DNA of 64,000 bases from an uncultured delta proteobacterium (GTDB lineage: Bacteria; Desulfobacterota; Binatia; UBA9968). Below are positions 1 to 15,133 of the stretch, in pieces. The stretch covers positions 96,001-160,000 of the forward strand of contig CAWJBB010000050.1 of assembly GCA_963840855.1 (NCBI GenBank). The letters are read 5' to 3'. The notes under the pieces are model-generated. The model made no database searches. It was given only the letters and a program-made list of their open reading frames with translations, and was not told where the DNA came from. Numbering within the stretch: position 1 is the first letter of the stretch; every line of letters begins with the position of its first letter. A program made the position numbers and the translations under genes.

Positions 1-739
1 TAAACGCAAAGACCGCGAGCCGTTTTTGGTTAGCAAACACCAGCGGGCCCGAGGGGAGCACATAGAGTCCATCCGGTCGCTGCTTGTTTAACGCAGCAAA
101 TACCTTCTCGAAACCGTCCACATCTCGTACCTCCCAAGGCTGAATAGTCAACTTCAGCGCACGCGCCGCGACCGGGAGAACCTCTTTCATGTCGAGTTCA
201 GCGCCTAGATTGGCCGGATCGTAGAGAACCGCGACACGGGCAAGTTTGGGAACGGCCTCTTTGAACAGCTCCAGCCGCTTGCCGCTTAGTTGTCTGCTAA
301 CGTTTGTGATGCCGGTGACGTTGCCGCCGGGACGCGCAAGGCTATCGACCAGGCCTGACTCGACAGGATCGAGGCCACGGCCCACCATAACGATGGGAAT
401 CGTCTTGGTCGCATTCTTGGCCGCCTGGATCCAGCTGTTCCCTCCTGCTACTACGATGACATCGACCTTGAGGCTTATCAGCTCGGCCAGAAACCTCGGG
501 CCTCGATCGCGCTTCCCCTCCGCATATCGGTACTCACTGGCGATGTTCTGTCCTTCTATGTAGCCCAGCTCGTGCAGAGCCAGCCGAATTGTCTCAAAAA
601 AGGTGGACTCAGTAGCTGGATCGTTCGCCGACAGATACCCTATCCGCGGGACCTTCTTCGGCTGCTGCGCGTCGGCTATGACTCCAACAGCAAGTAGGAT
701 CACTACGAACAGGATTGACGAGACACCAGCTTTTTTCAT
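1..739 (-). CDS. ABC transporter substrate-binding protein (COG2984-type), runs off window (SBP0)
   Basis: ATG at 739 reads MKKAGVSSILFVVILLAVGVIADAQQPKKVPRIGYL; contains SLARPGGNVTG and GKRLELFKEAVPK motifs shared with the paralogs at 7.5-12.8 kb. Confidence 0.9.
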   Translation of the reverse strand, partial: MKKAGVSSILFVVILLAVGVIADAQQPKKVPRIGYLSANDPATESTFFETIRLALHELGYIEGQNIASEYRYAEGKRDRGPRFLAELISLKVDVIVVAGGNSWIQAAKNATKTIPIVMVGRGLDPVESGLVDSLARPGGNVTGITNVSRQLSGKRLELFKEAVPKLARVAVLYDPANLGAELDMKEVLPVAARALKLTIQPWEVRDVDGFEKVFAALNKQRPDGLYVLPSGPLVFANQKRLAVFAF

Positions 740-846
740 TGCAGACACCATTTGCGCATTACACGGAAGGTAGCAGAGAAAAGTGACATTTACGACAGAA
801 GGCGAAAGGTATTCCGTCGAGTGGAAAAACCAGATTTTTAGCCTGA

Positions 847-910
847 GATTGAATTGAACGACGCATCCGGCAAATCTCACAGGATGCAGTCAACAGAGAG
901 GGATTAGTTC
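847..910. repeat. Inter-cassette palindromic element P, copy 1 (right arm degenerate)
   Basis: gattgaattgaacgacgcatccggcaaatctcacaggatgc; inner stem gcatcc/ggatgc. Confidence 0.75.
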
Positions 911-1103
911 CGCGCCACGTTTAACGCTCGCCTCCCGCACAACCTCACGAGGGTTTTTGTCTTCACGCAAGCCGACGAAAGCGATTGCCGTAGATGCGCG
1001 TCCGGCGTCCACTTGGCAAACTCGATGTGGCCACTTTCATCGACAGCCACAATTTCGATCAAGAATTTGAAGCTCTTGAATGAAGCCTTATGGAGGAAAT
1101 GAC

Positions 1104-1532
1104 TCAAGAGCTGCGTCGATAGTCCAGAAACAATCCAGCTACTCTTTTGACGAGATCATCTATAACACGCCGGGTGGATTCGAGCTGCGCGCCAGCTTCT
1201 TTCCTAGGATCGGAAACCGGCCAATATTCCCATCTCGTCCGTGATGGAAAACTTGGAACGGGACCATCGAGGCTTCCCACGACTATGATTAAGTCAATAT
1301 CGTCGCGAGAGATTTCACCTAATCCTTTGCTGGCCCGCGTCAGTTTGATTCCGCGTTCCGCTAACGCCTCAACCGTTCCTCTGTCGGTGGGTCCAGGAAT
1401 AATACCTGCGCTGAAAATTTGCACTTGAGGAGAGTCTAGCCGCATTGCGATCGCTTCTGCTATCGGACTCAGGCAGGCGTTGTCCTGGCATAAGAACAGG
1501 ATTCTCCTATCGCGAATAATGTTTCTGACCAC
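1104..1532 (-). CDS. Low-molecular-weight phosphatase/arsenate reductase-fold protein with degenerate P-loop
   Basis: ILFLCQDNACLSPIAEA, SAG, DLII, W..SDP motifs; GGGGGAG RBS before GTG; Arg of CX5R replaced by Leu. Confidence 0.8.
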   Translation of the reverse strand: MVRNIIRDRRILFLCQDNACLSPIAEAIAMRLDSPQVQIFSAGIIPGPTDRGTVEALAERGIKLTRASKGLGEISRDDIDLIIVVGSLDGPVPSFPSRTRWEYWPVSDPRKEAGAQLESTRRVIDDLVKRVAGLFLDYRRSS

Positions 1533-1944
1533 TTTCTCCCCCCAATGATTTCAATGATTGACCCGAATTGTTTTACAGTACTGGTGCGGCTCTCAATTTT
1601 AGGAACGGCTTCCAGGCAACACCCTTTGGCGAGTGATCCGGCCAACGGAAAAGCTTCAGCCCAAAATCTATGGAACCGGGAATAGTAAGACTCCATCCGG
1701 AATTTGTCTTGACATTGTGCGCCATTCGATTGATATCTGCGGCGGCCTGGGTTGAGTTGGCGAGAAAGGTTTGACAAATCCACCGCACAAGGACAGGAGA
1801 TGAAAGAGGGTGCGTTACACGTTTTGTGATAATAAGAGCAGTCTGAGACGGCTAATGAAAGGCGCAACGGTTACTCGGCCACGCATATCATAACGACCAA
1901 GATGTCGGGGTGCCGCTCTTGGCAGCCAGAAGGCCAGACCACCA

Positions 1945-2047
1945 TGAGACTGAACTAAATGACGCGCGTCAATCGAATGCGACGTAGGATTGGTTTTGCG
2001 ATGGGGATGAATTCAGAGCGCTCAGATGGAGAATTCAGTTCAATCCT
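1945..2047. repeat. Palindromic element P, copy 2 (left arm degenerate)
   Basis: degenerate gagactgaactaaatgacgc at ~1946; intact right arm ggagaattcagttcaatcct at 2028-2047. Confidence 0.7.
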
Positions 2048-2223
2048 GAAATCGCCGCTTGGTTACTTGATCATCCGATCCGCAGCGCCCCTTTTTTCAT
2101 ACGCCGCCCGAGCCAGCCGAAGCAACATTGGGATTTTCATCAAACAGAAAGACGATTGACATCCCACCGGTCCGGCGATATTGCTCAGGCCAGAACAAAA
2201 GGTGGTTTAAAATTCCTATACAG
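2028..2223 (+). repeat. ~195-bp module copy A: P right arm + SBP 3'-end remnant + promoter
   Basis: near-identical to 3278-3469; ttacttgatcatccgatccgc (2063-2083) reads ADRMIK* on minus strand. Confidence 0.9.
2156..2184 (+). promoter_or_regulatory. Putative sigma70 promoter in module A
   Basis: TTGACA at 2156-2161 followed by gatattgc; conserved in module B. Confidence 0.5.
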
Positions 2224-2341
2224 AAAATCGCCTTTGGACGATCTGTCCTTTAATGGAAGGCTCTAAAGATCGGCCAAACAAAAGTTCAAATGTGATCGGT
2301 GTTTAATCCAGTGGATAGAAATAGCTCATTGGCAGAGTCGC

Positions 2342-2810
2342 ATGCTTGGATTGTTCAAGTCAGCATCATTTGTTGACCCACAGCTTGGCGAGTTACATCG
2401 CTCGCGCGGTGCATGGCGCGGAACACTCAAACTCGACGGTGAAGCGCCGGTAACTCTCATATTAAGCGGGAGCCGGCGCCGAAGCGTTGCGCATCGCACG
2501 GTCCTTGCCTTCAGACTACGCGTCCTGGCGGCCTGCTATCGAACGGGAGCTATTCGATCACTACTCACCATACGCGGAGACTGTTGCCGCAGGAGAACTG
2601 GATGCCCCTTCTTCGGGTCTACCGCCTATCGATGCTCCCTCCTCGGTCTGGGGTCATACGACCGTGGCGTTTGTTCAGGTAACTCCCCTTGGCGGTGTTC
2701 TCACTGTCGAGCTCGGTTATCGGGTCGCCTGGGATGAAGAACACACCTTGGGTGCTCGCTTTCGGGCTGGCCAGCTGTTTGAGTTATGCGGTAGTGTGTT
2801 AGCGCCATGA
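2342..2810 (+). pseudogene. Hypothetical protein (DUF6985-like), frameshifted near 2480
   Basis: ORF 2342 N-terminus continues in ORF 2487-2810 (WDEEHTLGARF). Confidence 0.6.
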
Positions 2811-3152
2811 CAGCGGCGCCCAACAACAGAGACGTTAACACTCTATCGAATTGTTTCTCCTCAATCCAAGAGTGCGCGTGAGTAGATTCGCCAGGCAAGG
2901 TTTTTAAAATGCGATTGGCGCCCAATCCAAGGGATAAAAGTAGCTCGTTAGCAGGGTCGTCGAGTAAAAGAAAACTAGGAATGTCAGGGTCGCCAGGGAT
3001 AGGCGAAGAAGTTTTGCCACGGATAAATCCTCCCTGTGTTGTTGCTTAGTGCCCGATATCGCAAATCCACGCCAAACGCCAGAGTTTCTAATTCGAGGGG
3101 AACACGTAGAGAGGTTCTGAGGCGTCGATCAGTTAGGCGATCTCTCCGAGGC

Positions 3153-3206
3153 TTCGACATCGACATCGACATCGAACACTGCCCGAACTGCGGCGGCAGC
3201 TTGAAC
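3153..3206 (+). mobile_element. IS91/ISCR-family transposase C-terminal fragment
   Basis: FDIDIDIEHCPNCGGSL resembles the VFxIDIExCPxCGGxL Zn-ribbon tail of IS91-type transposases. Confidence 0.6.
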
Positions 3207-3230
3207 ATAGCACATTCGCATAACCGCAGA

Positions 3231-3293
3231 ATTGAACTGATCGACGCAACGGGCAAATCTCACAGGATTTGTTAGACGGAGAAATTCAATCCT
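3231..3293. repeat. Palindromic element P, copy 3
   Basis: attgaactgatcgacgcaacgggcaaatctcacaggatttgttagacggagaaattcaatcct. Confidence 0.85.
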
Positions 3294-3469
3294 GGCATCG
3301 CCGCTCGGCTACTTGATCACTCGATCCGCAGCGCCCCCTCTTTCATACGCCGCCCGAGCCAGCCGAAGCAACATTCGGATTTTCATCAAACAGAAAGAGG
3401 ATTGACATCCCACCGGGTCCGGCGATATTGCTCAGCCAGAAAAAAAGGTGGTTTAAAATTCCTATACAG
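3278..3469 (+). repeat. ~192-bp module copy B: P right arm + SBP 3'-end remnant + promoter
   Basis: ctacttgatcactcgatccgc (3309-3329) = ADRVIK* on minus strand; TTGACA at 3402; identity with copy A ends at cctatacag. Confidence 0.9.
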
Positions 3470-3522
3470 CTATAGTTTAAATTTAAACGATAAAAGTCTA
3501 TCTACTCTCTTGGGGGGCATGA

Positions 3523-4239
3523 ATGACCCGTAGCGCGACGACAGGTGGCCTGGTCCAGGACCTGGTTCTGGCCAACCGAATTCTTGCAGATCAGGGCGTA
3601 TTGGACGGATTCGGGCACGTCAGCGCCAGGCACGATTCCGACCCCGGCCGGTTCCTGATCAGTCAGTCCCGGGCACCATCCGCCGTAACGGCCATGGATA
3701 TCATGGAAATCGACTTCGCGGGCAACCCCGTGCCCGGGACCGGTCTAAAGCCACCTCTAGAGCGATTCATTCACGGCGAAATCTTCAAGGCCCGCCCCGA
3801 CGTGATGGCGGTAGTTCACAGTCACTCGCCCTCGATAATTCCGTTTGGCGTTACGGGCGGCAACTTGCGCGCCATATGCCACGTTTGCGCGTTTCTAGGT
3901 AGCAAGACCCCGATATTCGAGATACGGGACGGCTTTGGAGACGCTACGGACCTCCTGATCAGGAATATCGAGACGGGAGCGGCATTGGCGAAGGCCCTCG
4001 GGGCAGCCCCTGTCATACTCATGCGAGGGCATGGAAATGCCGTAGTTGGCACGAGCATCCGGCATGCGGTGTATCGAGCTATTTATACGGAACTGAACGC
4101 CCGGCTCCAGTCGGAGGCGATGCGGCTTGGCGACGTCACCTTCTTGAGCGAGGCAGAGTCGAAGAACGCGACCCTGGGCGTGGAGGCGGATCTGTCGAAG
4201 CCTTGGGAACACTGGGTGAAAAGGGTGCGGGTCGATTAA
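3523..4239 (+). CDS. Class II aldolase/adducin family protein
   Basis: GHVSAR, ERFIHGEI, VHSHSP, LMRGHG motifs. Confidence 0.92.
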   Translation: MTRSATTGGLVQDLVLANRILADQGVLDGFGHVSARHDSDPGRFLISQSRAPSAVTAMDIMEIDFAGNPVPGTGLKPPLERFIHGEIFKARPDVMAVVHSHSPSIIPFGVTGGNLRAICHVCAFLGSKTPIFEIRDGFGDATDLLIRNIETGAALAKALGAAPVILMRGHGNAVVGTSIRHAVYRAIYTELNARLQSEAMRLGDVTFLSEAESKNATLGVEADLSKPWEHWVKRVRVD

Positions 4240-4336
4240 CACGAGCGCCGGCTACGAACCGAGCAACGCGTCGTTGAAAACCATTTGTCAGAAACCCGCT
4301 AGCAATCGCATTCGGAAGTGATATGAATCGCGCGCC

Positions 4337-6286
4337 GTGAGGATACTGGAGCCAATTACGTCTATGTCATCCAGCCCAATAAGCGATAGCCGCGTGCCGC
4401 TAGACGCGGTCCTGTGTACCGAGGAATTGAATCGACGGCCGCCGCGCCCGCCGGACTACGAGACGGAAATCCGCGCCCTGGTGACCCTGGCTCAAGCGCT
4501 GGCCGACTCGCCGCGAACCATTCTTCAGACATTGGCCGACAAAATCCTGGAAGTTTTCCAAGCTGGCTCAGCGGGCATCAGCCTGCTGACCAAGGACGAT
4601 GGCGGAAAAAGGTTCCACTGGCCGGCGATCTCTGGCGTGTGGAAACCGCACATCGGCGGCGGAACGCCGCGCGACTTTGGCCCCTGCGGCGACGTGCTCG
4701 ACCGTAACGCCGCGCTACTGTTCCGGCATTTCGAACTGCGTTACACCTATTTCCTGCCGGTGACGCCTCCAGTCGAAGAGTGCCTGCTCGTTCCTTTTTA
4801 CGTCGAGGGGAAAGCAGTCGGCACGATCTGGGCGATCGCCCACGACGCTCGCCGCAAGTTCGATGCCGAGGATCTCCGGCAGCTTGAAAGTCTCGGCCGG
4901 TTTGCATCAGCGGCATATCAGGCCGTGGAGTTTCTTGATGCATTGGAGCAACGATCCGAAGCATTGCGGCGAAGCAACGCCGAACTCGCCGAGCGCATGG
5001 CCGAACTCCGGAACGCCAACGCACAGGCTGAGGAAGCGCGCCGCGCCGCGCTCAACGCGAATGCCGATCTTGAAAACCGCGTCGCGGACCGAACCGCCGA
5101 CCTGCGGCGGAGTATTGCCGAACGCGAGGAACTCCAGGACCAACTGCTGCAATCGCAAAAGATGGAGAGCGTAGGCACTCTCGCCAGTGGTGTTGCCCAT
5201 GATTTCAATAACCTTTTGAATATTATATTAAGCCACGCCACCAGTATGCGCTTAGACGGCAAGAACCCTGCGACCATTTCCGAAGGTGCCGCTGTCATTG
5301 AAGAGACCGTCAGGCGGGGAGCCAGCCTGGTCCAGCAGCTCATGACGTTGGGCCGAAAGACCGAGACCAAGTTTGAGCCTGTAAGGCTTAACAGCTTAGC
5401 CGAGAAACTGACCAATCTTCTCACAAAAACCTTTCCCAAGACGATCATCATAATTCTGGATCTGGAGCCGGGGCTTCCTGTGATTAACGGCGACGAGAAC
5501 CAGCTACATCAGACTCTGCTCAATCTCTGCGTCAACGCGCGCGATGCCATGCCCGAGGGCGGCCGCATGTCACTCAAAACCGAAACGGTTTCGGGAACTG
5601 ATCTGCGACGCCACGTCCCGGAAGCAGCAGCAGAATGCTATGTCTCCATCAGTGTAACTGATCGTGGCATCGGCATGGACGATGCGACTCAGCGGCGCGT
5701 TTTCGAGCCGTTTTTCACGACCAAGCCGGTAGGAGAGGGAACTGGGCTCGGTCTCGCAGTGGTTTACGGCATCGTAAAAAATCACGATGGTTTCATAGAA
5801 GTAAAGAGTAAGCTAGGTCACGGGACGACCTTTTGGATCTACTTGCCGATTCCGAGCGAAGCCACACGGCAAACATCTGCAGCGGGATCAAACTACACTG
5901 CGCTAAAGCGAGCGGGTAGTGGGGAGACGATTCTTTTCGTCGACGACGAGGAGAGGCAGTTGAATGTCATGCGGCGTTTTCTTGAGAACGAGGGATACAG
6001 AGTTCTCAGCGCCCAAGACGGCGTTGAGGCGGTGGAGACTTTCAAGCAACACAAAGACGCGATCGCCGTGGCGGTGCTGGATTTGGGTCTCCCGCAACTC
6101 GACGGTTGGCAAGCATTTCAGCAAATGAGAGAAATTCGCCCCGAGCTAAAAGCGCTCATCGCTACAGGCCTGATCTCCCCGGAAGTCGAGGCTGAAATCG
6201 CGCAAGAAAAATTGTGTGCAGTGCTTTCCAAGCCGTACCAGCTAGATGACGTTCTAGAGAAAATTTCGCAGGCGATCCATGGTTAG
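4337..6286 (+). CDS. GAF-containing hybrid sensor histidine kinase/response regulator
   Basis: GAF, AHDFNNLL H-box, FEPFFTTK, GTGLGL, C-terminal receiver domain. Confidence 0.95.
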   Translation: MRILEPITSMSSSPISDSRVPLDAVLCTEELNRRPPRPPDYETEIRALVTLAQALADSPRTILQTLADKILEVFQAGSAGISLLTKDDGGKRFHWPAISGVWKPHIGGGTPRDFGPCGDVLDRNAALLFRHFELRYTYFLPVTPPVEECLLVPFYVEGKAVGTIWAIAHDARRKFDAEDLRQLESLGRFASAAYQAVEFLDALEQRSEALRRSNAELAERMAELRNANAQAEEARRAALNANADLENRVADRTADLRRSIAEREELQDQLLQSQKMESVGTLASGVAHDFNNLLNIILSHATSMRLDGKNPATISEGAAVIEETVRRGASLVQQLMTLGRKTETKFEPVRLNSLAEKLTNLLTKTFPKTIIIILDLEPGLPVINGDENQLHQTLLNLCVNARDAMPEGGRMSLKTETVSGTDLRRHVPEAAAECYVSISVTDRGIGMDDATQRRVFEPFFTTKPVGEGTGLGLAVVYGIVKNHDGFIEVKSKLGHGTTFWIYLPIPSEATRQTSAAGSNYTALKRAGSGETILFVDDEERQLNVMRRFLENEGYRVLSAQDGVEAVETFKQHKDAIAVAVLDLGLPQLDGWQAFQQMREIRPELKALIATGLISPEVEAEIAQEKLCAVLSKPYQLDDVLEKISQAIHG

Positions 6287-6522
6287 GGCTGGGGCAAACA
6301 ATGATCAACGAATATTCGGCCAAATTCCATCCCGTAAAACTCGGCCAACCCGGCTAAGTCGAAGCCGAATGTAATACCAGTGTCTTGAAACCGTACGACT
6401 TCCACCACGGAGCCCAGGCGACCGTCTTTGAGGATCGACCCGAAGGGATGCCAATAATGGGTATAAGGCGGCCCAGGAACGGCGCTGCCGGTGATCCAAT
6501 AGCCTTTGTAGCGTTCCATCAT
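6283..6522 (-). CDS. Small hypothetical protein
   Basis: 79-aa ORF overlapping the SRAP stop (coupled). Confidence 0.55.
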   Translation of the reverse strand: MMERYKGYWITGSAVPGPPYTHYWHPFGSILKDGRLGSVVEVVRFQDTGITFGFDLAGLAEFYGMEFGRIFVDHCLPQP

Positions 6523-7196
6523 AGCAGTTTGCCTTCAGCCGGGAGGATGCATTCCGGCGAATCGTTGCGGTGATTGTTCACAAAGGGTGACACGTCGTAG
6601 CCTTCCATCTTTTCCGGCGGATACGGTTTCAGCAAAGTGAGAGCATGAGCGATTTCGTAGTCAAGGGCAAGCCATTTAAACGCGTCGTCGTTACTGAGCA
6701 TGACGGGCATCCGATTATGGATCGGGCGCAACACGTCATTCGACTCCGTCGTGACAATCGTATAGGTCCGCAATGAACTTCCATCCGGTTGCTTCCAGCT
6801 ATCCCACAAACCGGCGAACGCGAACGGTTCCCCGGACTTGAGCTTGAACCGCATGGGGGCTTTTCGCTTGCCCCCTTGCCGCCACTCGTAAAAGCCATCG
6901 GCAAGAACGAGACAGCGGCGATTCCCCAGCAGCCCCCTGAAAGCCGGTTTCTCAGCGAGCGTTTCAGCGCGGGCGTTGATCATCACGTTACCGATGGCCG
7001 GATCATTCGCCCACCAGGTAATCAACCCCCACCGAAAAAGCTCGATTCTTCGGTTTGAGTCCGCTTGAACGATTACTGGCGCTTCTTGACTCGGAGCGAT
7101 GTTATATCGGGGCGTTAAACCGAAGATTTCATCGACATTCCAGGCAACGCGAAGGTCGGAAAATTCACGGGGAAAATAAGTGTAGCGGCCGCACAT
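6519..7196 (-). CDS. SOS response-associated peptidase (SRAP/YedK-HMCES family)
   Basis: N-terminal MCGRY, RYNIAP, INARAET, FYEW, IHNRMP. Confidence 0.95.
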   Translation of the reverse strand: MCGRYTYFPREFSDLRVAWNVDEIFGLTPRYNIAPSQEAPVIVQADSNRRIELFRWGLITWWANDPAIGNVMINARAETLAEKPAFRGLLGNRRCLVLADGFYEWRQGGKRKAPMRFKLKSGEPFAFAGLWDSWKQPDGSSLRTYTIVTTESNDVLRPIHNRMPVMLSNDDAFKWLALDYEIAHALTLLKPYPPEKMEGYDVSPFVNNHRNDSPECILPAEGKLL

Positions 7197-7416
7197 CACT
7201 AAGTATATCGCTACGGCGGATCGCGGTCAAATTTCACCTGCGGCGTATGATGCAGAAGGCGCGCAGGAACTACGGACAGGAATTTTGGTGGGCGCCGGGC
7301 GACCCTACGCCGGCCAGGGCGCCGGATGTGGAGGCGGCGGTGCCAGACTGAAAAGATCGGATAACTGTCGACCTGTCGGCACTTAGAATATCGAGAACGT
7401 TGCGGGCCACTAAAAC

Positions 7417-7517
7417 GACCTCGTTCTAGGCTATCACGCACACGGCAATTGCGAAAAGGATTTGCGGCAGAAGAGAACTACGTTTCGTCGAGAGAAAATA
7501 GGCCAAATTCGGCCTGA
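7417..7517 (-). promoter_or_regulatory. Orphan SBP leader (no SBP gene downstream)
   Basis: acctcgtt...ctatcacgcacacgg...gtttcgtcgagag...ggccaaa resembles the leaders at 8555-8660, 9747-9848 and 11949-12052. Confidence 0.65.
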
Positions 7518-7547
7518 GATTGAACTGAAGGAGAATTCAGTTCAATC
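7518..7547. repeat. Palindromic element P, copy 4 (minimal form)
   Basis: perfect 12-bp IR gattgaactgaa / ttcagttcaatc with 6-nt loop ggagaa. Confidence 0.92.
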
Positions 7548-7576
7548 CTGCGATTCGCTACTAAGTGTTTCTGCCA

Positions 7577-8551
7577 TCACTTGATCACTCTATTCGCTCT
7601 CACCAACACGTTCGGCGGAATCGTCAGGCCGATCTGTTTCGCTGTCTTCAGATTGATGATGAACTCAAACTTCGTCGGCTGCTCCACCGGCAGGTCGGCA
7701 GGCTTGGTGCCCTTGAGGATCTTGTCTACATAATACGCCGCACGCCTGAAACTTTCAGCTTCATCGGCTGAATAGGACATCAGGCAACCAGCCTCCACGT
7801 AATCACTTCTTTCACACATGGATGGTATTCGGTTCTTTATGGCAAGGTCAGCGATTAACTTTCGATGACTAATGGTCACACCCTGGGTATCGACAATGAG
7901 CGCGCTCACACGCCCGCTGGTCGCCACTTGGAATGCTCCCTCAAAATCAGGGTTTGGACCGCGAACCTCTAGCGAGAGAATCTGCACCTTTAGTGCGCGT
8001 GCCGCAGACTCGTAATCTGTCGTCAATCCGCCCAGGACTCCAATGCGCGACACTCCCGGAATCGCCTCGTTAAGCAATTCCAGCCGTTTACCGATTAAGT
8101 CCTTGGTGAGTCTCGTGAGTCCTGTGATATTTCCGCCTGGATGCGCTAAGCTATCTATTAGCCCAAGCGCGACTGGATCGCCGGTAATCATCATCACGAT
8201 GGGAATCGTCTTGGTCGCCTGTTTGGCTGCACGGATACCTGAATTAGCTGCGGAGACAAGCACATCGACCTTGAGCTGTACGAGCTCAGCCGCGAAGCCT
8301 GGAAGACGGTCCCCCACTCCCTCAGCATAGCGATACTCGACAAGGATGTTTTTCCCCTCAATATAACCGAGATCCCTTAGCCCTTGGCGGAATGCATTCT
8401 CGAACAGATCGGGACTAGTAGACGTCGGCTTGACCCTGTTCGACAAAAATCCGATCCGCGGGCCTTTGCCCGGCTGCTGCGCTTCGGCTGTAACTCCAAG
8501 AGCAAGCAAAAACACTGCAACCAGGATTGACGGCACCGCAGCCTTCTTCAT
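7577..8551 (-). CDS. ABC transporter substrate-binding protein (COG2984-type) SBP1
   Basis: signal peptide AEA-QQ; PGGNITG; PADLPVEQPTKFEFIINLKTAKQIGLTIPP. Confidence 0.95.
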   Translation of the reverse strand: MKKAAVPSILVAVFLLALGVTAEAQQPGKGPRIGFLSNRVKPTSTSPDLFENAFRQGLRDLGYIEGKNILVEYRYAEGVGDRLPGFAAELVQLKVDVLVSAANSGIRAAKQATKTIPIVMMITGDPVALGLIDSLAHPGGNITGLTRLTKDLIGKRLELLNEAIPGVSRIGVLGGLTTDYESAARALKVQILSLEVRGPNPDFEGAFQVATSGRVSALIVDTQGVTISHRKLIADLAIKNRIPSMCERSDYVEAGCLMSYSADEAESFRRAAYYVDKILKGTKPADLPVEQPTKFEFIINLKTAKQIGLTIPPNVLVRANRVIK

Positions 8552-8658
8552 TGCACACCTCGTTTCGAGCGTTACTTATCACACGGACGGAAATAAAGAA
8601 AAGTGTGAGTTACGGCGGGAGGCGATATGCGTTCGTCGAATACAAAGGCCAGAATCAC

Positions 8659-8734
8659 GCTAGGATTGAACTGAACGACGCAACGGACGAATCTCACAGG
8701 ATTTGTTAGACGGAGAATTCAGTTCAATCCTAGC
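8659..8734. repeat. Palindromic element P, copy 5
   Basis: perfect 17-bp IR gctaggattgaactgaa / ttcagttcaatcctagc with inner stem gacgaatc/gatttgtt. Confidence 0.95.
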
Positions 8735-8756
8735 ATCGCCGCTTTGTTTCTTTCGA

Positions 8757-9743
8757 TTACTTGATCACCTGATCCGCCCGCGCCAACACGTTCGGCGGGA
8801 TAGTCAGGCCGATCTGCTTCGCCGCTTTCAGACTGATAATGAACTCGAACTTCTTCGGCTGTTCGACGGGAAGATCGGCGGGCTTGGTCCCTTTTAGGAT
8901 TTTGTCAACGTAAGTGGCGGCGCGCCGCCACATATCAGCAAGGCTTGCTCCATAGAACATGAGGCCGCCGACATCCACAAATTCCCTATGTGCGTACATC
9001 GCCGGCAACCGGCTCTTGGCCGAAAGGGCCACAATTCGTCCTGCCTGACTAACGAACATCGGGTCTGGCAGCACCATAAGCGCCCTGGCTCCCTCGCGGG
9101 TTGTGGCCTCGAAAGCCTTGTCAAACTCGGTTGGATCGCGGACCTCTTGGACCCGAATCTGGACTCCCAATGCTCGGGCCGCAACCTCCATGCCTTTTAG
9201 CGACAGCTCACTGTCTGGATTCCTTGGATTCGAGAGCACAGCCACCCGGGAGACCTTCGGGACGGCTTCCTTGAGCACCTCCAACCGTTTCCCGCTTAAC
9301 TCTTGCCCGAGAGCGGTCAGTCCCGTGATGTTTCCCCCAGGGCGCGCAAGGCTAGCAACGAGCCCGCCCGCGACAGGATCGCCGGTCGTCACCATGACAA
9401 TGGGAATCGCACCAGTGGTGTTTTTCACAGCTATAATCCCTGGTGTAGACCCTACTACGATCACGTCCGCCTTAAGGCGGACAAGCTCAGCAGCGAAACC
9501 TGCGAGACGTTCGATATTACCTTCAGCATACCTAGGCTCAAGCTTGATGTTCTGTTCCTCCACGTACCCGTGTTCGCGTAACCCTTGTCGAAGCGCGTCG
9601 ACCAGTTGAGGAGCACCAGACGCGCTGGCGGGAACAAAGGCGCCTATCCGGTGAACTTTCTTCGGCTGCTGCGCTTCGGCTGTAACTCCAAGAGCAAGCA
9701 ACACCACGGCAACAAGGATTGATGGCACCGCAGCCTTTGTCAT
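8757..9743 (-). CDS. ABC transporter substrate-binding protein (COG2984-type) SBP2
   Basis: same family motifs as SBP1. Confidence 0.95.
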   Translation of the reverse strand: MTKAAVPSILVAVVLLALGVTAEAQQPKKVHRIGAFVPASASGAPQLVDALRQGLREHGYVEEQNIKLEPRYAEGNIERLAGFAAELVRLKADVIVVGSTPGIIAVKNTTGAIPIVMVTTGDPVAGGLVASLARPGGNITGLTALGQELSGKRLEVLKEAVPKVSRVAVLSNPRNPDSELSLKGMEVAARALGVQIRVQEVRDPTEFDKAFEATTREGARALMVLPDPMFVSQAGRIVALSAKSRLPAMYAHREFVDVGGLMFYGASLADMWRRAATYVDKILKGTKPADLPVEQPKKFEFIISLKAAKQIGLTIPPNVLARADQVIK

Positions 9744-9848
9744 TGCGCACCTCGTTTCGAGCGTTATGTATCACGCGGATAGAGATAAAGGAAAGTGTGA
9801 TTTACGACGGAAGTCGACGACGTTTTGTCGAGGCAAAAGACCAAATTT

Positions 9849-9924
9849 GGATTGACACTGAACTGTACCAATAGCGTGAGGTGAATTTAGCAGGTTTGAG
9901 CCGATAGAGAATTCAATTCAATCC
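9849..9924. repeat. Palindromic element P, copy 6 (divergent)
   Basis: ggattgacactgaa ... gagaattcaattcaatcc. Confidence 0.8.
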
Positions 9925-9950
9925 TAGCATTGCCGCTTCGTTTTCTTCGA

Positions 9951-10928
9951 TTACTTGATCACTCTGTCCGCTCTCGCCAACACGTTGGGCGGGATCGTGA
10001 GACCGATCTGCTTCGCGGCTTTCAGATTGACGATGAATTCAAACTTCTTCGGCTGCTCGACGGGCAGATCCGCGGGCTTCACGCCTTTCAGAATCTTGTC
10101 GACGTAAAAAGCGGCGCGGCGATACAGATCGGAAATGCTCGTCGCATAGGTCATGAGCCCCCCGGCGTCAACAAATTCCTGCTCAGGATACATCCCCGGC
10201 AACCGGTATTTGACTGCCAACTTGACCAATCCTTTTTGATGAGTAACGAAAAACCCACCTCTGTCAGGGATGAAAGCATCTGCACGGGTCCGAACGATCG
10301 ATCGGAACCCGTTTTCCATATCTTCAGAACTTTCTACCGCAACAGAGTTGATGTGTACTTTGAGCAACCGCGCCGCGGCCTCGGTTTCTTTAAGATCACT
10401 GGACGGGCGGCGCACGTCCAAGAAAAAGGCTACGCGAGAAAGCTTTGGAATAGCTTCCTTGAGCAACTCAAGTCGCTTGCCTGCTAGATCGGAAACAAAA
10501 TTGCTCAGTCCCGTGATGTTTCCGCCGGGCCGTGCCAGGCTGGCGATGAATCCCTCGTTAACAGGGTCTGCCGTGTTGGCCATGATGATCGGAATGGCGC
10601 CGGTGGCTTGCTTGGCGGCACGAGTCGGAGACCCGCCCGCGGTGACGATGCAGTCGACCTTGAGACGCACGAGGTCGGCCGCCAGCTCCGGAAGGCGATC
10701 GATGTTTCCTTCCGCCGAGCGGTACTCAATAGCGACGTTTGTTCCTTCTACGTAGCCAAACTCTCGCAGCCCTTGGCGGAAGGAATCGAGCCGGGATGCC
10801 AACGAGGAAAGTGAGGCGGTCGAAATAAAACCTATCCGCGGAACTTTCCCTTGCTGCTGCGCCTGAGTGGGAACGCTGAGCGCCAAGAGCAAAGCGCTAA
10901 GAGCCAAAGCAAAAATGTGTTTCATCAT
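9951..10928 (-). CDS. ABC transporter substrate-binding protein (COG2984-type) SBP3
   Basis: same family motifs; different signal peptide. Confidence 0.95.
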   Translation of the reverse strand: MMKHIFALALSALLLALSVPTQAQQQGKVPRIGFISTASLSSLASRLDSFRQGLREFGYVEGTNVAIEYRSAEGNIDRLPELAADLVRLKVDCIVTAGGSPTRAAKQATGAIPIIMANTADPVNEGFIASLARPGGNITGLSNFVSDLAGKRLELLKEAIPKLSRVAFFLDVRRPSSDLKETEAAARLLKVHINSVAVESSEDMENGFRSIVRTRADAFIPDRGGFFVTHQKGLVKLAVKYRLPGMYPEQEFVDAGGLMTYATSISDLYRRAAFYVDKILKGVKPADLPVEQPKKFEFIVNLKAAKQIGLTIPPNVLARADRVIK

Positions 10929-10937
10929 TCTTTCCTC

Positions 10938-10965
10938 TCACGCCTTACGCCTCACGGCTCACGCC
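10938..10965. repeat. Heptamer tandem repeat (tcacgcc x4)
   Basis: tcacgcc ttacgcc tcacggc tcacgcc between SBP4 stop and SBP3 start. Confidence 0.8.
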
Positions 10966-11945
10966 TATCGAATCACTTTGTCCGCCCGCGCCAGCACGTT
11001 CGGCGGAATCGTCAGGCCGATCTGCTTGGCGGTTTTTAGATTGATGACGAACTCGAACTTCATCGGCTGCTCGACGGGGAGATCGGCGGGGTTGGCGCCT
11101 TTGAGGATTTTGTCCACATACGTAGCGGCGCGGCGGGCCAAGTCGTTGAGGTTCACGCCGTAGGTCATAAGCCCCCCGGCTTCCACAATTTCTCGATTGC
11201 GGTATATCACTGGGAGCCGGCTCTTTGCCCCGAGTTCTAGAATCTCGGCTCGGCGAGGATCGAGGTTGGGGCCCGATACCTGGACAATGACTGCCTCAGC
11301 CCGCCCCTTGGCTGCGGCTTGGAAGGCACTCTCAAAATCCTTGGGACTTTGGATGTCAAGGTATTGAACCTTCACTCCGAGCGCCCCTGCCGCGAGGTCA
11401 ATCTCTTTTTGAATTTGCGCGTAGTCCGGGGTGGCGAAGACGGCCACGCGCGAGAGCTTGGGAACGATCTCCTTCAGAAGCTCCAGTTGTTTGCCGCTCA
11501 ACTCCGGGCGAAGGGTTGCCAATCCCGTAATGTTTCCACCAGGCCGCGCTAGACTCGCCACGAAGCCGCTCCCAACAGGATCGCCACCTTGAACCATGAC
11601 AATGGGGATTGTGGCAGTCGCCTCCTTGGCCGCGCGTATATCTCCCGAACCGCCCGCAACGATGACGTCTATTTTGAGACGCACCAGGTCGGCCGCGAGC
11701 GCGCGCTGGCGATCGCGGTTTCCCTCACCAGATCGCCACTCAATGATAATGTTTTCCCCCTCAACGTACCCAACCTCGCGCAGCGCCCGCCGGAATGCCT
11801 CGCGTGAGGCCGACGCAGCGGACACAGGCGTATTAGTTAGGTATCCTATCCGCGGGACTTTCTTCGGCTGCTGTGCCTCGGCCAGGACCGCAACAGCAAG
11901 CATTACGACTGCAACCAGGATTGATGCCCATCCAGCTTTTTTCAT
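10965..11945 (-). CDS. ABC transporter substrate-binding protein (COG2984-type) SBP4
   Basis: MKKAGWASILVAVV start by homology to paralogs; family motifs. Confidence 0.95.
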   Translation of the reverse strand: MKKAGWASILVAVVMLAVAVLAEAQQPKKVPRIGYLTNTPVSAASASREAFRRALREVGYVEGENIIIEWRSGEGNRDRQRALAADLVRLKIDVIVAGGSGDIRAAKEATATIPIVMVQGGDPVGSGFVASLARPGGNITGLATLRPELSGKQLELLKEIVPKLSRVAVFATPDYAQIQKEIDLAAGALGVKVQYLDIQSPKDFESAFQAAAKGRAEAVIVQVSGPNLDPRRAEILELGAKSRLPVIYRNREIVEAGGLMTYGVNLNDLARRAATYVDKILKGANPADLPVEQPMKFEFVINLKTAKQIGLTIPPNVLARADKVIR

Positions 11946-12052
11946 TGCGCACCTCGTGCTGGAGACTATCACGCGCACCATAATTCCGAAAACAATTATT
12001 TAAGGCAGAAAAGGCAACGACTCGTCGAGAGGAAAAATACGAAATCCGACGT

Positions 12053-12122
12053 AGGATTGAACTGAACGACGCATCGGACAAATCTCACAGCATTGCGTCG
12101 TCGGAGAATTCAGTTCAATCCT
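12053..12122. repeat. Palindromic element P, copy 7
   Basis: 14-bp IR aggattgaactgaa / ttcagttcaatcct; inner stem acgacgca/tgcgtcgt; cggagaa bulge. Confidence 0.95.
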
Positions 12123-12147
12123 GGCTTCGCATTTTGCTTTTCTTCCA

Positions 12148-12768
12148 TCACTTGATCAACTTGGTCGCCCGCGCGAGTACCTCCGGCGGAATCGTGACGC
12201 CGATCTGCTTCGCGGTTTTGAGATTGATCACCAGCTCAAACTTCGTCGGCTGCTCCACCGGAAGTTCAGCGGGCTTGGCGCCTTTAAGAATCCTGTCCAC
12301 GAAATATGCGACGCGCCGGTAGCTGTCCGCTTCGTCCGCCCCGTAGTACATGAGCCCGCCGGCGTTTACAGCTTCTCTGTTGCCGAACACCGACGGTAGC
12401 CGGCTCTTAAACGCAAATTCCAGGATCCGTTTTCGGTTAGGACGCATTACCCTGCCCGCGGTCACCGGGTAGAGTCCATCCGGGCGCTCCTTGTTTAGCG
12501 CAGCAAAGACCTTATCGAAGTCGTCCACCGCTCGTATCTGCCAAGGTTGAATAGTCACCTTTAGCGCACGCGCGTCGGCTGGGAGAAGCTCTTTCACCTC
12601 GTGTAAACTTTGCGGATTGGCCGGATCGTAGAGAACCGCGACACTGGCAAGTTTGGGTACCGCTTCTTTGAGCAGCTCCAGCCGCTTCCCGCCTAGTTCT
12701 CCGGTAAGGTTGGTAACGCCCGTGACGTTGCCGCCGGGACGGGCAAGGGTTTCAACCAAGCCTGCCTC
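12148..12768 (-). pseudogene. 5'-truncated SBP (SBP5), interrupted by IS21 end
   Basis: homology starts at EAGLVETLARPGGNVTG; N-terminal ~120 aa missing. Confidence 0.88.
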
Positions 12769-13015
12769 TGACCGATTTCACGGAACGTACCCACCCAATT
12801 TCAACGAAGGGACCCACCTGATTTCAAGGAAGGGACCCACCCAATTTCAGGTGGTCCCCTTCGTTTCTGAGCGAGCCGACGAACGATGCTACCTTGGCCA
12901 ACTGGAGGAGGATCCAGTTAATGGCCAAAGAAAGGACCAGCGTTCGTATGCGAGCTCAAATCAAAACCCTGTCCGAACAGGGGCACTCCGTTCGCCGTAT
13001 TGCCCGGATACTTTT
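12769..13015 (+). mobile_element. IS21-family left end with truncated istA
   Basis: starts TG; three 23-bp tandem terminal repeats at 12774-12842; GGAGGAGG RBS, ATG 12921 MAKERTSVRMRAQIKTLSEQGHSVRRIARIL (IstA-like HTH), then truncated. Confidence 0.8.
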
Positions 13016-13212
13016 ATCGGGCTCCTCGGGTATAGCGATGCGCGCGTTTAGGAGGGCTCAAGTTGGTACACCTAGAAGGGGGCACACCTTGGTACACCTA
13101 GGGGGGCTCACGTGGGGGTACCCGTCACAATACATAAGAAAGTACATTCTTAAGTACATTACTAGAGAATTATTCTCTTATGTATTCTTTCTTGTGGGTA
13201 GATAGGTCGGTG

Positions 13213-13641
13213 ATGGGTAGCAAGTCTAAAGTTGATGTTACGAAGTATTCTTGGCCGGCATCACTACCAGAGAAGCCAAACCTTCGATTGGTAGGAACGA
13301 GGCGCCGGATAAAGTTGAAGGGGGAGTTTTTTGGGCCTGTCCCAGCCTGGTGGTTGATCCAGGCTTTACGGGCAGGGATACGAAAAAGCTATGGTGCGGT
13401 TTTTATTGGGCTGCTGTTATGGCGGCAGTATTGGCTTGAACGCCAGAAGCAGCCGTTAAAATTGACCGGAGCGGTATTGAAGAAATTTGGACTCGAGAAA
13501 CGTTTTGCGCGGCACGCCCTAGACGCCCTGGAGAAAGCCGGCCTGATTTATGTGCAAAAGTTTAATTACCGGTCTCCACTGATAACGATCGTGACACAAG
13601 AAAAGGACTATCTTTCATGGACGAAGCGATTAGATACATGA
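13213..13641 (+). CDS. Winged-helix-like DNA-binding protein (possibly replication-related)
   Basis: KFGLEKRFARHALDALEKAGLIYV wHTH-like pattern. Confidence 0.55.
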   Translation: MGSKSKVDVTKYSWPASLPEKPNLRLVGTRRRIKLKGEFFGPVPAWWLIQALRAGIRKSYGAVFIGLLLWRQYWLERQKQPLKLTGAVLKKFGLEKRFARHALDALEKAGLIYVQKFNYRSPLITIVTQEKDYLSWTKRLDT

Positions 13642-13860
13642 ACGAGGCTTGGCGAAAAGTAATCGCACATGAGGCGCGGGAGCTCGTGGAGCGAAAGTGT
13701 CAGAGATCCCACAACCAGGACAAAAAAAGGTCGGACTCGATGACCACTTTGTTGCAGGCGGGCGCATTGAGGACTTGGAAACGTTCACGCTTGGCGGGCA
13801 GACCTTCCGGTCGACGTCGTTCTGGTATGGGCAATGGAAGTTAAAGGCGTAGTTAGCAGC

Positions 13861-14064
13861 ATGACACGGTTTGCTTGTGCGTGGAAAGGGTGCAGCGAAA
13901 AGTGGGCGGGAAGTTTCGAGACGATGCCTATGGAATGGGGATGGCCGTCCCGTGCCAGCATCGACTTCATGAAACAGCGCGGACTCATCGATCAAGAAAT
14001 AGATTCTCCGTATCTCTGCCCAGCACATACGCACGAACTTTTGAGTATGAAAACTCAAGCCTAA
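13861..14064 (+). CDS. Small Cys/His-containing hypothetical protein
   Basis: CAWKGC...LCPAH. Confidence 0.45.
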   Translation: MTRFACAWKGCSEKWAGSFETMPMEWGWPSRASIDFMKQRGLIDQEIDSPYLCPAHTHELLSMKTQA

Positions 14065-14088
14065 CCAACGGAAAACCAACGAAAACCG

Positions 14089-15121: not shown

Positions 15122-15133
15122 AAGGCCACGGAC

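Follow-up and report, generated by a model that had tools for sequence, protein, structure and literature searches.

Palindromic sites between orphan substrate-binding protein genes of an uncultured soil bacterium resemble paired Xer-type recombination sites

In the present study, the palindrome that recurs between the substrate-binding protein (SBP) genes of a 64,000-nt stretch of DNA (the window) was found to be a recombination-type site and not a canonical attC, a REP, or a terminator. Its arms are very probably the ends (L and R) of a unit bearing the gene of a Xer-family tyrosine recombinase (Rec). We further propose that the palindrome is a back-to-back pair of recombination sites, in which the L and R ends of this small module meet, and we consider the chances of the whole mechanism to be about even. 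With the palindrome read as the ends of a mobile unit that has a Xer-type recombinase elsewhere, the gene array looks like swappable chromosomal modules and not like a row of terminators.

Results

A profile scan of the window ORFs revealed PF04392 (ABC_sub_bind) matches in six ORFs (E 6e-23 to 2e-50), all co-oriented on the minus strand (Table 1). The initial annotation had listed six co-oriented COG2984-type SBP genes with neither a permease nor an ATPase, and both points were confirmed; since the genes are on the minus strand, the coordinates given there are stop ends. A family scan of the other ORFs in 1-14202 found no ABC permease or ATPase; these ORFs comprised LMWPc, class II aldolase, hybrid histidine kinase, and SRAP genes and five without a family. 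SBP6 lacks its N-terminal ~125 residues and is truncated by foreign DNA beginning near 12768. The mutual identity of the SBPs flanked by the palindromic element is only ~50-65%.

Table 1. Sites, leaders, and genes of the array in the window.
Feature	Position	Strand	Remarks
SBP1	2..739	-	PF04392, E 6e-23; ORF 2-880, true start probably 739; runs past window start
SBP1 leader	740..846	-	Conserved ~107 nt between site and SBP1 start; one of 36 genome-wide leader matches
Site copy 1	847..912	-	R-type end 848-875 good; L (far) arm degenerate
LMWPc-family phosphatase gene	1104..1532	-	Non-SBP module of array; family scan
Site copy 2	1946..2048	-	74-nt interior; R-type end 1949-1976 degenerate; L-type end 2017-2044 exact
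Site copy 3	3227..3294	-	R-type end 3231-3258; 4-nt deletion in L arm
Short form (arms + 6 nt only)	7515..7550	-	11-6-11 (arm, TTCTCC, arm) perfect at 7519-7546; 27 nt past SBP2 stop
SBP2	7577..8551	-	324 aa; PF04392, E 3e-44
SBP2 leader	8552..8660	-	Leader match
Site copy 5	8661..8732	-	Full 66-nt form; L-type end 8701-8728; R-type end 8665-8692
SBP3	8757..9743	-	328 aa; PF04392, E 1e-47
SBP3 leader	9744..9848	-	Leader match
Site copy 6	9849..9925	-	L-type end 9895-9922; R side degenerate, one arm with insertion
SBP4	9951..10928	-	325 aa; PF04392
SBP5	10965..11981	-	338 aa; PF04392, E 2e-50
SBP5 leader	11982..12051	-	Shorter (70 nt); sequence, leader match
Site copy 7	12052..12123	-	Full form; L-type end 12092-12119; R-type end 12056-12083
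SBP6	12148..12759	-	N-terminal third missing; covers profile positions 98-292 only

The whole window was scanned with a 12-mer arm, allowing up to 2 mismatches, with 100 shuffles as a control. There were 16 matches against 5.05 expected, a number reached in 0/100 shuffles; 12 of the 16, including all 7 exact matches, were below 12,200. The estimate of about seven palindrome copies was correct (7 between 847 and 12123). In contrast, the "variable loop" ascribed to them was not borne out in most copies, whose interior is ~36 nt and largely conserved. The described repeating unit of leader, SBP gene, and site was found in part. The stop-to-site distance is 24-27 nt in 22/32 cases genome-wide, and the next start follows the site at 106-110 nt in three window cases; however, this distance is 70 nt in one case, and the 36-nt gap between SBP4 and SBP5 (10928/10965) contains no site. 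On the gene strand, a GTTAAAC box (919-925) is located upstream of site copy 1 and looks like the R' box of the attC of the upstream LMWPc gene.

At each end, an 11-nt outer arm (ATTGAACTGAA) with strong conservation is followed by a 6-nt spacer and then by an inner arm with weak conservation. L ends have the spacer TTCTCC and R ends GCGTCG (CGACGC inward from the arm), and the filler between the two ends is ~25-36 nt here. Judged by sequence, this layout is that of a Xer/dif-type core site. In G000, the metagenome-assembled genome (MAG) containing the window, the 63 exact arms are followed by a TTCTCC-like spacer in 28 cases, a CGACGC-like spacer in 25, and another sequence in 10. When 2 mismatches were tolerated, the numbers of L-type and R-type ends rose to 74 and 64, and copies of the site are confined to about 15 contig regions. 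For the 11 nt beyond the spacer, the mean agreement with the opposite arm is 5.6 and 4.9 of 11 positions (2.6 at other arm-like matches), counts that are not independent because the weak inner arms were taken from related copies.

Within a contig, 135/138 ends are co-oriented. Neighboring ends form 37 LR, 36 RL, 21 LL, and 11 RR pairs, such that 73/105 alternate and 32/105 do not. The L-to-R gap is 63-95 nt in 27/37 pairs, and the R-to-L gap has a median of 1136.5 nt, which is about one gene. Genome-wide, the R arm precedes 36/36 SBP leaders and the L arm is present in most SBP tails; therefore, the gene units are bounded by sites on both sides. One leader is preceded by arm-GCGTCG-arm, the other possible single site (compare the short form in Table 1).

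The corresponding unit of relatives is ~1.0 kb long and has one ~0.9-kb Rec gene between these two ends. In G002, which belongs to the same genus, two 307-aa ORFs are located downstream of an integron integrase gene (IntI). Both have the L end ~65 nt before the ATG, the R end 5-6 nt past the stop, and Phage_integrase and SAM-like domains. Their scores are ~201 bits against XerC and XerD (cut-offs 335/330) and only 65 bits against IntI (cut-off 265). Rec also matches XerA (195 bits) and XerS and XerH chains, falls below every curated cut-off, and has XerD 1a0p as its nearest solved structure (E 2e-38). Six of the nine copies examined possess both ends (G002 x2, G003 x2, L077, and L078); G017 (= L079) retains the R end only, the copy on contig C93 of G000 the L end only, and G045 neither. 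The flanks vary among the copies, and homology begins at the arm. In L077, the Rec unit is situated between two SBP genes, a position equivalent to that of the 66-nt form here. The C93 copy, the sole one in G000, is ~95% identical to that of G002; its approximately six 1-nt indels could be assembly errors, whereas the absence of the R end is real.

A covariance model of the site, run on related genomes as the initial annotation had suggested, detected the element in 20/61 genomes and 15/27 genera. Rec is rarer in this set, which consists entirely of MAGs of varied completeness: at E<=1e-40 it was found in 7/61 genomes, including one with a mere fragment and another whose copy has only 39% identity. 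The comparison of the 66-nt form with the Rec unit does not show the former to be a deletion derivative of the latter: the ends are common, and past ~17 nt at each end there is no significant similarity (314/2000 shuffles as high).

IntI is absent from the window, as originally stated; however, the genome encodes an integron integrase elsewhere (442 bits, cut-off 265). None adjoins any site array in G000. Canonical attC cassettes are present inside the same arrays as the palindromic sites, and the G002 array is a complete integron with IntI. IntI was found in 12/19 other genomes holding the element; the element occurs without IntI in 7 genomes, and the reverse is true of 10. In about 10 junctions, a complete canonical R' box precedes a complete L arm by 3-7 nt. 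The arms read ATTGAAC...GTTCAAT and match RYYYAAC/GTTRRRY at 6/7 positions, AAC and GTT included. The site is not a canonical attC; nevertheless, this match makes the ground on which attC had been excluded weaker than stated.

The proposal that the site bounds gene-sized modules was supported by two near-identical multi-kb segments. C69:64111-66462 is 99.96% identical to C85, and C46:104631 onward is 99.3% identical to C75 over 3152 nt; these "duplicates" may be co-binned strains because the contamination of the G000 MAG is 8.3%. Both pairs start exactly at the arm and have unrelated flanks. In the C46/C75 pair, 2/12 arm positions differ, versus 0.7% overall. Four soil sequencing runs yielded short unitigs and ambiguous joints, and no recombination products were seen among them.

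Discussion

The occurrence of recombination, the enzyme responsible, and the position of the crossover are what we infer from these sequences. Since the sites of an array are co-oriented and each site type has one spacer, Rec or another enzyme could recombine like sites. Any two like sites may be recombined by Rec or, conceivably, by host Xer proteins or IntI; IntI is also a candidate because the arms resemble attC R boxes and true attC cassettes are present in the arrays. The circle excised or inserted would consist of one gene module (leader, SBP gene, and 25-nt tail) and one site pair. Such exchange could shuffle the binding-protein repertoire together with neighboring integron cassettes.

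The integron-analogous cassette system of the initial annotation is supported insofar as a recombination-type site bounds modules; the movement of these modules is what their arrangement suggests. The idea that this system explains SBP expansions holds in part. Expansion does not need the site system because 54/100 SBP loci genome-wide are outside the site arrays, several as tandem runs without a site. Furthermore, in a quick SBP tree, the SBPs linked to a site have scattered positions (14 label changes, of which at least 6 are forced).

The most serious alternative, although we regard it as rather unlikely, is that the sites are relics: the ends of an IS-like parasite that has integron arrays and SBP intergenic regions as its targets, spreads through miniature copies, and plays no role in moving genes, the SBP arrays having arisen by unequal crossing-over. 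It differs from our proposal solely in whether the bounded genes move. The scattered tree positions and site-free tandem runs fit this alternative, as do the many close Rec-family variants on short metagenome contigs, and the fixed position of L ends 3-7 nt past canonical R' boxes suggests target choice. However, SBP units are bounded on both sides, module-sized duplicates terminate at the arm, and the sites have stayed conserved in 15 genera despite the divergence of the SBPs.

Somewhat less probable is that the 66-nt hairpin represents an atypical attC, which IntI folds as a single strand to move SBP genes as ordinary integron cassettes, the Rec unit being another cassette or an attC insertion. 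The R-box resemblance of the arms, the attC-compatible length of 66 nt, the location ~25 nt past stop codons, the canonical cassettes in the arrays, and the distribution of IntI in G000 and other element-bearing genomes all favor this view. The unpaired TTCTCC block is on the arm adjoining the upstream ORF, which would be the R''-L'' arm, and the extrahelical bases of attC are described on that arm (PMC2727003). However, the central spacer is not unpaired (TGAA/TTCA are fully paired), and the bulge is 6 nt instead of single extrahelical bases. The L and R halves are also found separately, each having a spacer and a weak arm of its own, and they enclose a 0.9-kb gene, neither of which applies to an attC hairpin. 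A G|TT exchange would not leave a full R' box 3-7 nt before a full L arm, and the absence of IntI beside the arrays of G000 and the genomes with only one of the two also argue against it.

It is improbable that the hairpin is a transcript-level element (a terminator, stabilizer, or processing site) copied with the gene by tandem duplication. The hairpin is located between co-oriented genes, its 13-bp stem has -12 to -20 kcal/mol when folded as DNA, and a small hairpin with a T-run is present just after the R arm (7515-7500). However, the main hairpin itself has no T-run and no terminator was called on any site, in contrast to the mere terminator that had been considered earlier. There was no covariation (the observed percentage paired was attained by 97/500 shuffles), no G-U strand bias (35 vs 56), no RNAalifold consensus, and no Rfam match at E<=1. 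The halves are found separately and on either side of a recombinase gene, and the association with SBPs is scattered on the tree. Least likely is a REP/REPIN-type repeat moved by RAYT (HUH Y1) or mobilized by nearby IS91-type (Y2) elements: the site is palindromic, intergenic, and present in tens of copies, and Y2 transposase genes are within or beside five array positions, but the copies are co-oriented in limited regions and not genome-wide, a copy at C35 is interrupted, not bounded, by an IS91-like unit, and, of the recombinase or HUH transposase for which the initial annotation had suggested a co-occurrence test, it is the Xer-family Rec that shares the ends, with 0/10 Y1-transposase matches inside an array.

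The closest known system to the paired recombination sites proposed here is the Acinetobacter dif modules. As described in PMC13141974, these modules are plasmid-borne and bounded by 28-bp pdif (XerC/XerD) sites with an 11-6-11 layout and alternating orientation; conservation is good in one pdif arm and loose in the other. The same source describes alternating polarity as giving two alternating module kinds, some without an ORF, with recombination expected only at like spacers and an adjacent module pair excised between direct sites that have the same spacer (PMC13141974). The present sites share the 11-6-11 layout, the prevailing L/R alternation, one spacer per type, and gene-sized modules. 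In contrast, the present arrays are chromosomal, span tens of kb with ~70 sites per type in one genome, and belong to uncultured soil bacteria. Both strong arms are identical in sequence, unlike those of pdif, which suggests a single recombinase. One module type carries its own Xer-like gene instead of relying on host XerCD, one spacer is common to every site of a type, and orphan SBP genes and integron cassettes, in place of resistance genes, make up most of the cargo; moreover, the present system is known from sequence alone.

Similar to integron cassettes, including arrays without an adjacent integrase, the units are co-oriented and single-gene, with an imperfect palindrome past the stop, R-box-like arms, and an unpaired block on the ORF-proximal arm, and the element resides in genuine integron arrays. 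It differs from attC in the absence of an unpaired central spacer or single extrahelical bases and in halves that act as separable ends, and from integrons in its Xer-like enzyme. Mobile elements that target attC include IS1111-attC insertion sequences and group IIC-attC introns, which use DEDD transposases or reverse transcriptases. The present element is likewise found in integron arrays with its L end just past an attC R' box; however, it has a Xer-family tyrosine recombinase, its inverted ends measure 11-13 bp, and versions without a gene are abundant. XerH/difH, XerS/difSL, and XerA/dif each use one chromosomal site for dimer resolution. As in these systems, one Xer-family protein would act here on two similar arms and a 6-nt spacer, whereas the ~140 ends are clustered in accessory arrays and Rec does not reach the curated cut-offs. 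Relatives of Rec are abundant in metagenomes, many as close variants on short contigs, and bear generic automatic names only.

Substrate-binding protein genes and the repeated site

Six minus-strand ORFs in the window matched PF04392 (82–172 bits against the Pfam gathering score of 25.9), and no ABC permease or ATPase was found among the other ORFs scanned in window 1–14202. The initial annotation of six co-oriented genes for substrate-binding proteins (SBPs), unaccompanied by permease or ATPase genes, was thus correct. SBP1 is cut by the window edge, and SBP6 lacks its N-terminal third. The remaining ORFs in 1–14202 correspond to LMWPc, a class II aldolase, a hybrid histidine kinase, SRAP, and five products without a family.

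The array had also been described as punctuated by approximately seven copies of a palindrome, and seven sites were indeed located (see the table). The 12-nt arm occurs 16 times in the window with up to two mismatches, against an expectation of 5.05, and none of 100 shuffles reached 16. Twelve of the 16 matches, including all seven exact copies, lie below position 12,200. On the gene strand, the stop codon is followed after approximately 25 nt by the site, then by a conserved leader of approximately 107 nt and the next start. The interior of the site is not the variable loop originally envisaged; instead, approximately 36 nt are common to most copies, while one copy has no interior and another has one of 74 nt.

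Coordinates of the sites and associated features (window positions, or contig and position in the host assembly)
Feature	Position	Remark
Site	847–912	
Site	1946–2048	
Site	3227–3294	
Site	7515–7550	
Site	8661–8732	
Site	9849–9925	
Site	12052–12123	
Short form of the site	7519–7546	Perfect 11-6-11, spacer TTCTCC
Repeat of ~180 nt	2046–2225	Directly after a site copy
Repeat of ~180 nt	3290–3470	Directly after a site copy
Foreign DNA	12768–17045	Truncates the N-terminal third of SBP6
Short tandem repeats	~12780–12850	In foreign DNA
HTH_17 (excisionase-like) ORF	15393–15728	In foreign DNA
Phage-type integrase	15945–17045	In foreign DNA
tadA-like deaminase gene	17187–17705	After foreign DNA
Integron integrase gene	C1:45987–46880	TIGR02249, 442 bits against a cut-off of 265
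Three tandem tyrosine-recombinase genes	C1:42288–45730 (loci L024, L026)	Adjoin the integron integrase gene
Canonical attC	C69:66716–66773	GCCTAAC...GTTAGGC, between two genes
Canonical attC	C69:65425–65497	GCCCAAC...GTTGGGC
Near-identical segment	C69:64111–66462	99.96% identical to part of C85
Near-identical segment	C46:104631 onward; C75:18693 onward	99.3% identical over 3152 nt
ORF of 2011 aa	C85:93648–99683	Preceded by a site copy and a conserved leader of a different kind
Repeat of the 3' part of this ORF	C41:191830–194662	95% identical
Integrase and Y2 transposase unit	C35:33400–34800 (= locus L009:13400–14800)	Interrupts a site copy
Further positions of this unit	C65:4708–5163; C77:4284–4718	
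Site-free run of PF04392 genes	C6:801–15168	12 tandem genes

Two further features were noted in this part of the window. The same sequence of approximately 180 nt occurs twice; it begins with approximately 45 nt of an SBP 3' end, continues as unrelated sequence, and terminates in ...GGTGGTTTAAAATTCCTATACAG. This repeat possibly marks the terminus of a further inserted element, one that has taken the place of the SBP body. The foreign DNA that truncates SBP6, which also contains small ORFs without a family, looks like an integrated island at the upstream edge of the array.

Distribution and anatomy of the ends

The host assembly (7.1 Mb in 93 contigs, 56% G+C, completeness 94%, contamination 8.3%) contains 88 non-overlapping copies of the element, full or partial, which are clustered on 15 contigs (profile search, E<0.01). 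An SBP gene stands on the upstream side of only 35 of these copies; the rest are found close to genes of other kinds, including those for PAP2, a response regulator, diacylglycerol kinase, hydrolases, subtilase, methyltransferases, BenE, and GFA. On the gene strand, many of the latter copies have an SBP leader downstream and a GTTRRRY-like box 3–7 nt before the left arm.

Each occurrence of the 11-nt arm in the host assembly was read inward. The 6-mer next to the 63 exact arms was TTCTCC-like in 28, CGACGC-like in 25, and of another kind in 10. With up to two mismatches, 74 ends belong to the left (L) type, with a TTCTCC-like spacer, and 64 to the right (R) type, with a spacer like GCGTCG (CGACGC in the inward direction). 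The 11 nt past the spacer agree with the opposite arm at a mean of 5.6 (L) or 4.9 (R) of 11 positions, against 2.6 at other arm-like hits, which is a soft figure because the copies are related. Based on these 6-mer and opposite-arm counts, each end consists of a strong arm, a 6-nt spacer, and a weak arm. Short 11-6-11 forms number four in the assembly, and one copy on contig C61 reads arm-GCGTCG-arm.

The ends are arranged regularly. Orientation is the same within a contig for 135 of 138 ends, and neighboring ends alternate in 73 of 105 pairs (LR, 37; RL, 36; LL, 21; RR, 11). Gaps from L to R measure 63–95 nt in 27 of 37 cases, forming tight pairs, and those from R to L have a median of 1136.5 nt, approximately one gene. 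Every one of the 36 SBP leaders detected in the assembly has an R arm before it.

In the leader of the 2011-aa ORF on C85, the element interior is present a second time, without arms. On C35, a site copy is interrupted just after GCGTCGTT by a unit in which a phage-type integrase is followed by a Y2 transposase of the IS91 family. Since Y2 genes are present in or beside five array positions, the GTTC-containing arm may serve as a target for this insertion sequence.

A Xer-like recombinase gene enclosed by the same ends

In G002, a relative from the same genus, two 307-aa ORFs lie in an array downstream of the integron integrase (IntI) gene. The left arm and TTCTCC are located approximately 65 nt before each ATG, and GCGTCG and the right arm 5–6 nt past each stop. 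The ORFs contain Phage_integrase and SAM-like domains. They score approximately 201 bits against both XerC and XerD (cut-offs 335 and 330), 195 against XerA, and only 65 against the IntI model, and their nearest solved structure is XerD (1a0p, E 2e-38). From these matches, they are predicted to be Xer-family tyrosine recombinases (designated Rec).

Nine copies of Rec were examined. Both ends were present in six (two in G002, two in the relative G003, and one each at the extracted loci L077 and L078); the others had only the right end, only the left end (contig C93 of the host assembly), or neither. The flanks vary among copies, and identity in the alignment between the host assembly and G002 begins exactly at the arm. 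At L077, a gene-bearing Rec unit stands between two SBP genes, in the position of the 66-nt form in the window.

The arm and 6-mer at each end are common to the Rec unit and the 66-nt form. Because Rec copies carry the same L and R ends, the palindrome very probably represents, as judged from sequence, the two ends of a Rec-type unit brought together, with a short filler replacing the gene. The possibility that the interior is a deletion remnant of the Rec unit was rejected; similarity between the two was not significant, with 314 and 1486 of 2000 shuffles scoring as high. Since the filler lacks significant similarity, we call the 66-nt form a short-cargo version and not a proven deletion derivative. 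The 66-nt form resembles a MITE in its size, its non-coding nature, the terminal inverted repeats that it shares with a coding element, and its abundance (27 tight pairs in the host assembly). However, the interior of a MITE is derived by deletion from the autonomous element, and the shuffle comparison gave no sign of this.

The Rec copy of the host assembly is frameshifted and lacks the right end, with approximately six 1-nt indels relative to G002. We also noted that 23 of approximately 100 SBP loci in this assembly are split over several frames. The split loci and the Rec indels are due either to genuine decay or to indel errors introduced during assembly. Among metagenome proteins of at least 62% identity, the Rec family forms well over 100 clusters (90% identity), which have generic automatic names only.

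Module boundaries and proposed mechanism

Two segments of the host assembly, one shared by C69 and C85 and the other by C46 and C75, recur in different surroundings and start exactly at the arm. In the C46/C75 pair, the arm differs at 2 of 12 positions, against 0.7% across the segment, as would be expected after a crossover at the border between arm and spacer. Neither segment has its far end at a site; in one case, this end is simply a deletion of 611 nt within genes. With a contamination of 8.3%, co-binning of strains, instead of duplication, may account for the near-identical pairs; in both cases, the segments break at the site. In a quick tree of 53 near-full-length SBP ORFs (80 partial ORFs were left out), the 23 site-touching SBPs are scattered, with 14 label changes, at least six of which are forced by well-supported branches. 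Because of this scatter, the association between site and gene appears to have been gained or lost several times.

Among described systems, the dif modules of Acinetobacter plasmids come nearest. PMC13141974 describes 28-bp Xer/dif sites (two inverted arms of approximately 11 nt around a 6-nt spacer; 11-6-11) of alternating polarity and two kinds of modules; like spacers are needed, and an adjacent module pair excises between direct sites. The short form in the window has this core layout. Alternating polarity (73 of 105 pairs) and the same module in different contexts with breaks at sites (the two segments and the Rec flanks) are also found here. A Xer-family enzyme acts on the site of dif modules; here, six of the nine Rec copies, all of them outside the host assembly, lie between such ends, and the action of the encoded enzyme on them is putative. 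In contrast to Acinetobacter, the arrays are chromosomal, extend over tens of kb, have approximately 140 site ends in one genome, and contain their own recombinase gene.

We propose two kinds of modules. The first would be a short or Rec-bearing interval from an L end to an R end, and the second a gene interval from an R end to the next L end, containing a leader, SBP, and tail or a run of integron cassettes. Because all L ends have one spacer and all R ends another, any pair of ends of the same type could recombine, and the exchange would move one gene module and one site pair. The enzyme may be Rec; IntI or host Xer proteins are also possible. By analogy with dif modules, the modules may move through site recombination. 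No recombination product was seen. Twenty public runs contained 19–33% of the sequence words, and an assembly from four of these, from soil, yielded unitigs of 150–800 nt with joints among paralogues whose sides were only 21–35 nt, which speak neither for nor against excision or module loss. The loci of relatives match the host assembly at only approximately 75% of nucleotides, which is too divergent for a comparison of empty and filled junctions.

Relation to integrons and alternative explanations

The arrays are partly true integron arrays. The initial annotation reported no IntI, which applies to the window itself; however, the genome has an IntI gene on C1 and a fragment on C21. No array was found beside either in the neighborhoods examined. 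Canonical attC sites lie within element-bearing arrays; two examples are on C69. In G002, IntI is followed by a same-strand GTTAGGC box, a rhodanese cassette with a textbook attC, and more cassettes, and the Rec units lie inside this array. A crude motif-plus-fold scan of the host assembly, which was used only to pick clear canonical examples, returned 171 attC-like loci, 15 of them in arrays (approximately 2.3-fold enriched); several are the element itself.

In G002 (C23; L052/L061) and the relative G027 (C7; L051/L060), IntI follows a conserved block of large genes and points toward the cassette array, with an attI-like GTTAGGC box after its 3' end. This layout is an "inverted" integron, not the usual divergent one. 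The three tyrosine-recombinase genes that adjoin IntI on C1 of the host assembly presumably resemble a recombinase-in-trio element.

The site arms ATTGAAC and GTTCAAT agree with RYYYAAC and GTTRRRY at six of seven positions each; they retain AAC and GTT, and the mismatch in either arm is at the fourth position. In PMC2727003, attC is described as having an unpaired central spacer that separates the R from the L boxes and an R''-L'' arm with two or three single extrahelical bases. In the present site, TGAA/TTCA is fully paired in an uninterrupted 13-bp stem, and the unpaired part is a 6-nt TTCTCC block. The earlier view that the site is not a canonical attC is upheld by these features. We consider it unlikely that IntI acts on the 66-nt hairpin. 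The six shared R-box positions argue for such a role, as does the unpaired block, which lies on the ORF-proximal (R''-L'') arm and, in the terms of PMC2727003, has an attC-like polarity. On the other hand, the central spacer is paired, and a 6-nt block replaces the single extrahelical bases. Furthermore, the junctions retain a complete R' box and a complete L arm, which speaks against an exchange at G|TT because such an exchange would not leave both.

A combined reading, in which the double site of 66 nt imitates the hairpin of an attC and is spread by its own Xer-like recombinase, with IntI then treating the gene and hairpin as a cassette, appears quite improbable to us. It would account for Xer-type modules interleaved with canonical cassettes in one array and, if true, would provide a working route from ordinary chromosomal genes, such as SBP genes, to new integron cassettes. 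The likeness of the arms to the attC R box and the interleaving with true cassettes bear on the origin of attC sites and new cassettes.

The recombination-type cassette system suggested initially is consistent with the Xer-like ends and the breaks at the arm, but not in its REP/HUH form. REP/REPIN elements with a RAYT were rejected; none of 10 Y1-transposase hits lies in an array, and the copies are clustered on 15 contigs. A structured RNA was also rejected, as RNAalifold gave no consensus structure for the element, hairpin pair counts were not above those of shuffles, G-U strand bias was absent, and Rfam had no match at E≤1 in window 1–16000. An intrinsic terminator was dismissed since the stem is A+T-rich and lacks a T-run, and the scan called none of the seven sites; promoter and terminator calls on sites or leaders were confined to two small hairpin-plus-T-run matches inside leaders.

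Occurrence in relatives and significance

The covariance-model search proposed in the initial annotation detected the element in 20 of 61 related genomes, representing 15 of 27 genera and two families. IntI (E≤1e-40) was found in 23 of the 61 and Rec in 7. These relatives are Candidatus Binatia or uncultured delta proteobacterium MAGs; one, G009 (unpublished), has IntI and lacks the element. We noted Rec units 84% identical to a Binatia copy at L077 and L079, on short contigs binned as Pyrinomonadaceae and Candidatus Udaeobacter. Their presence on contigs of other phyla is due to either mis-binning or transfer between phyla.

A full-text literature search, judged largely by listings, returned no account of the element, of a Xer-like unit in integron arrays, or of PF04392 cassettes. 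Modules bounded by Xer sites are known; the present ones are unusual in being chromosomal, very numerous, equipped with their own recombinase gene, and interleaved with a true integron. In the literature consulted, such modules are treated as a peculiarity of Acinetobacter plasmids, which rely on XerCD of the host. A counterpart on the chromosomes of uncultured soil bacteria would mark the dif-module principle as general and old, and the enzyme with its 28–32-bp site would constitute a compact new site-specific recombination pair.

The proposed movement of modules also offers a testable, concrete mechanism for reshuffling part of a very large orphan SBP family. Among approximately 100 SBP loci in the host assembly, 46 are inside these arrays and 54 outside, including site-free tandem runs of up to 12. 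The system can account for the reshuffling of some members of the family, but not for the family's expansion, for which it had originally been invoked. The run of 12 on C6, in which the gaps are very short and neither sites nor leaders are present, is a second, site-free way of arraying the PF04392 family.
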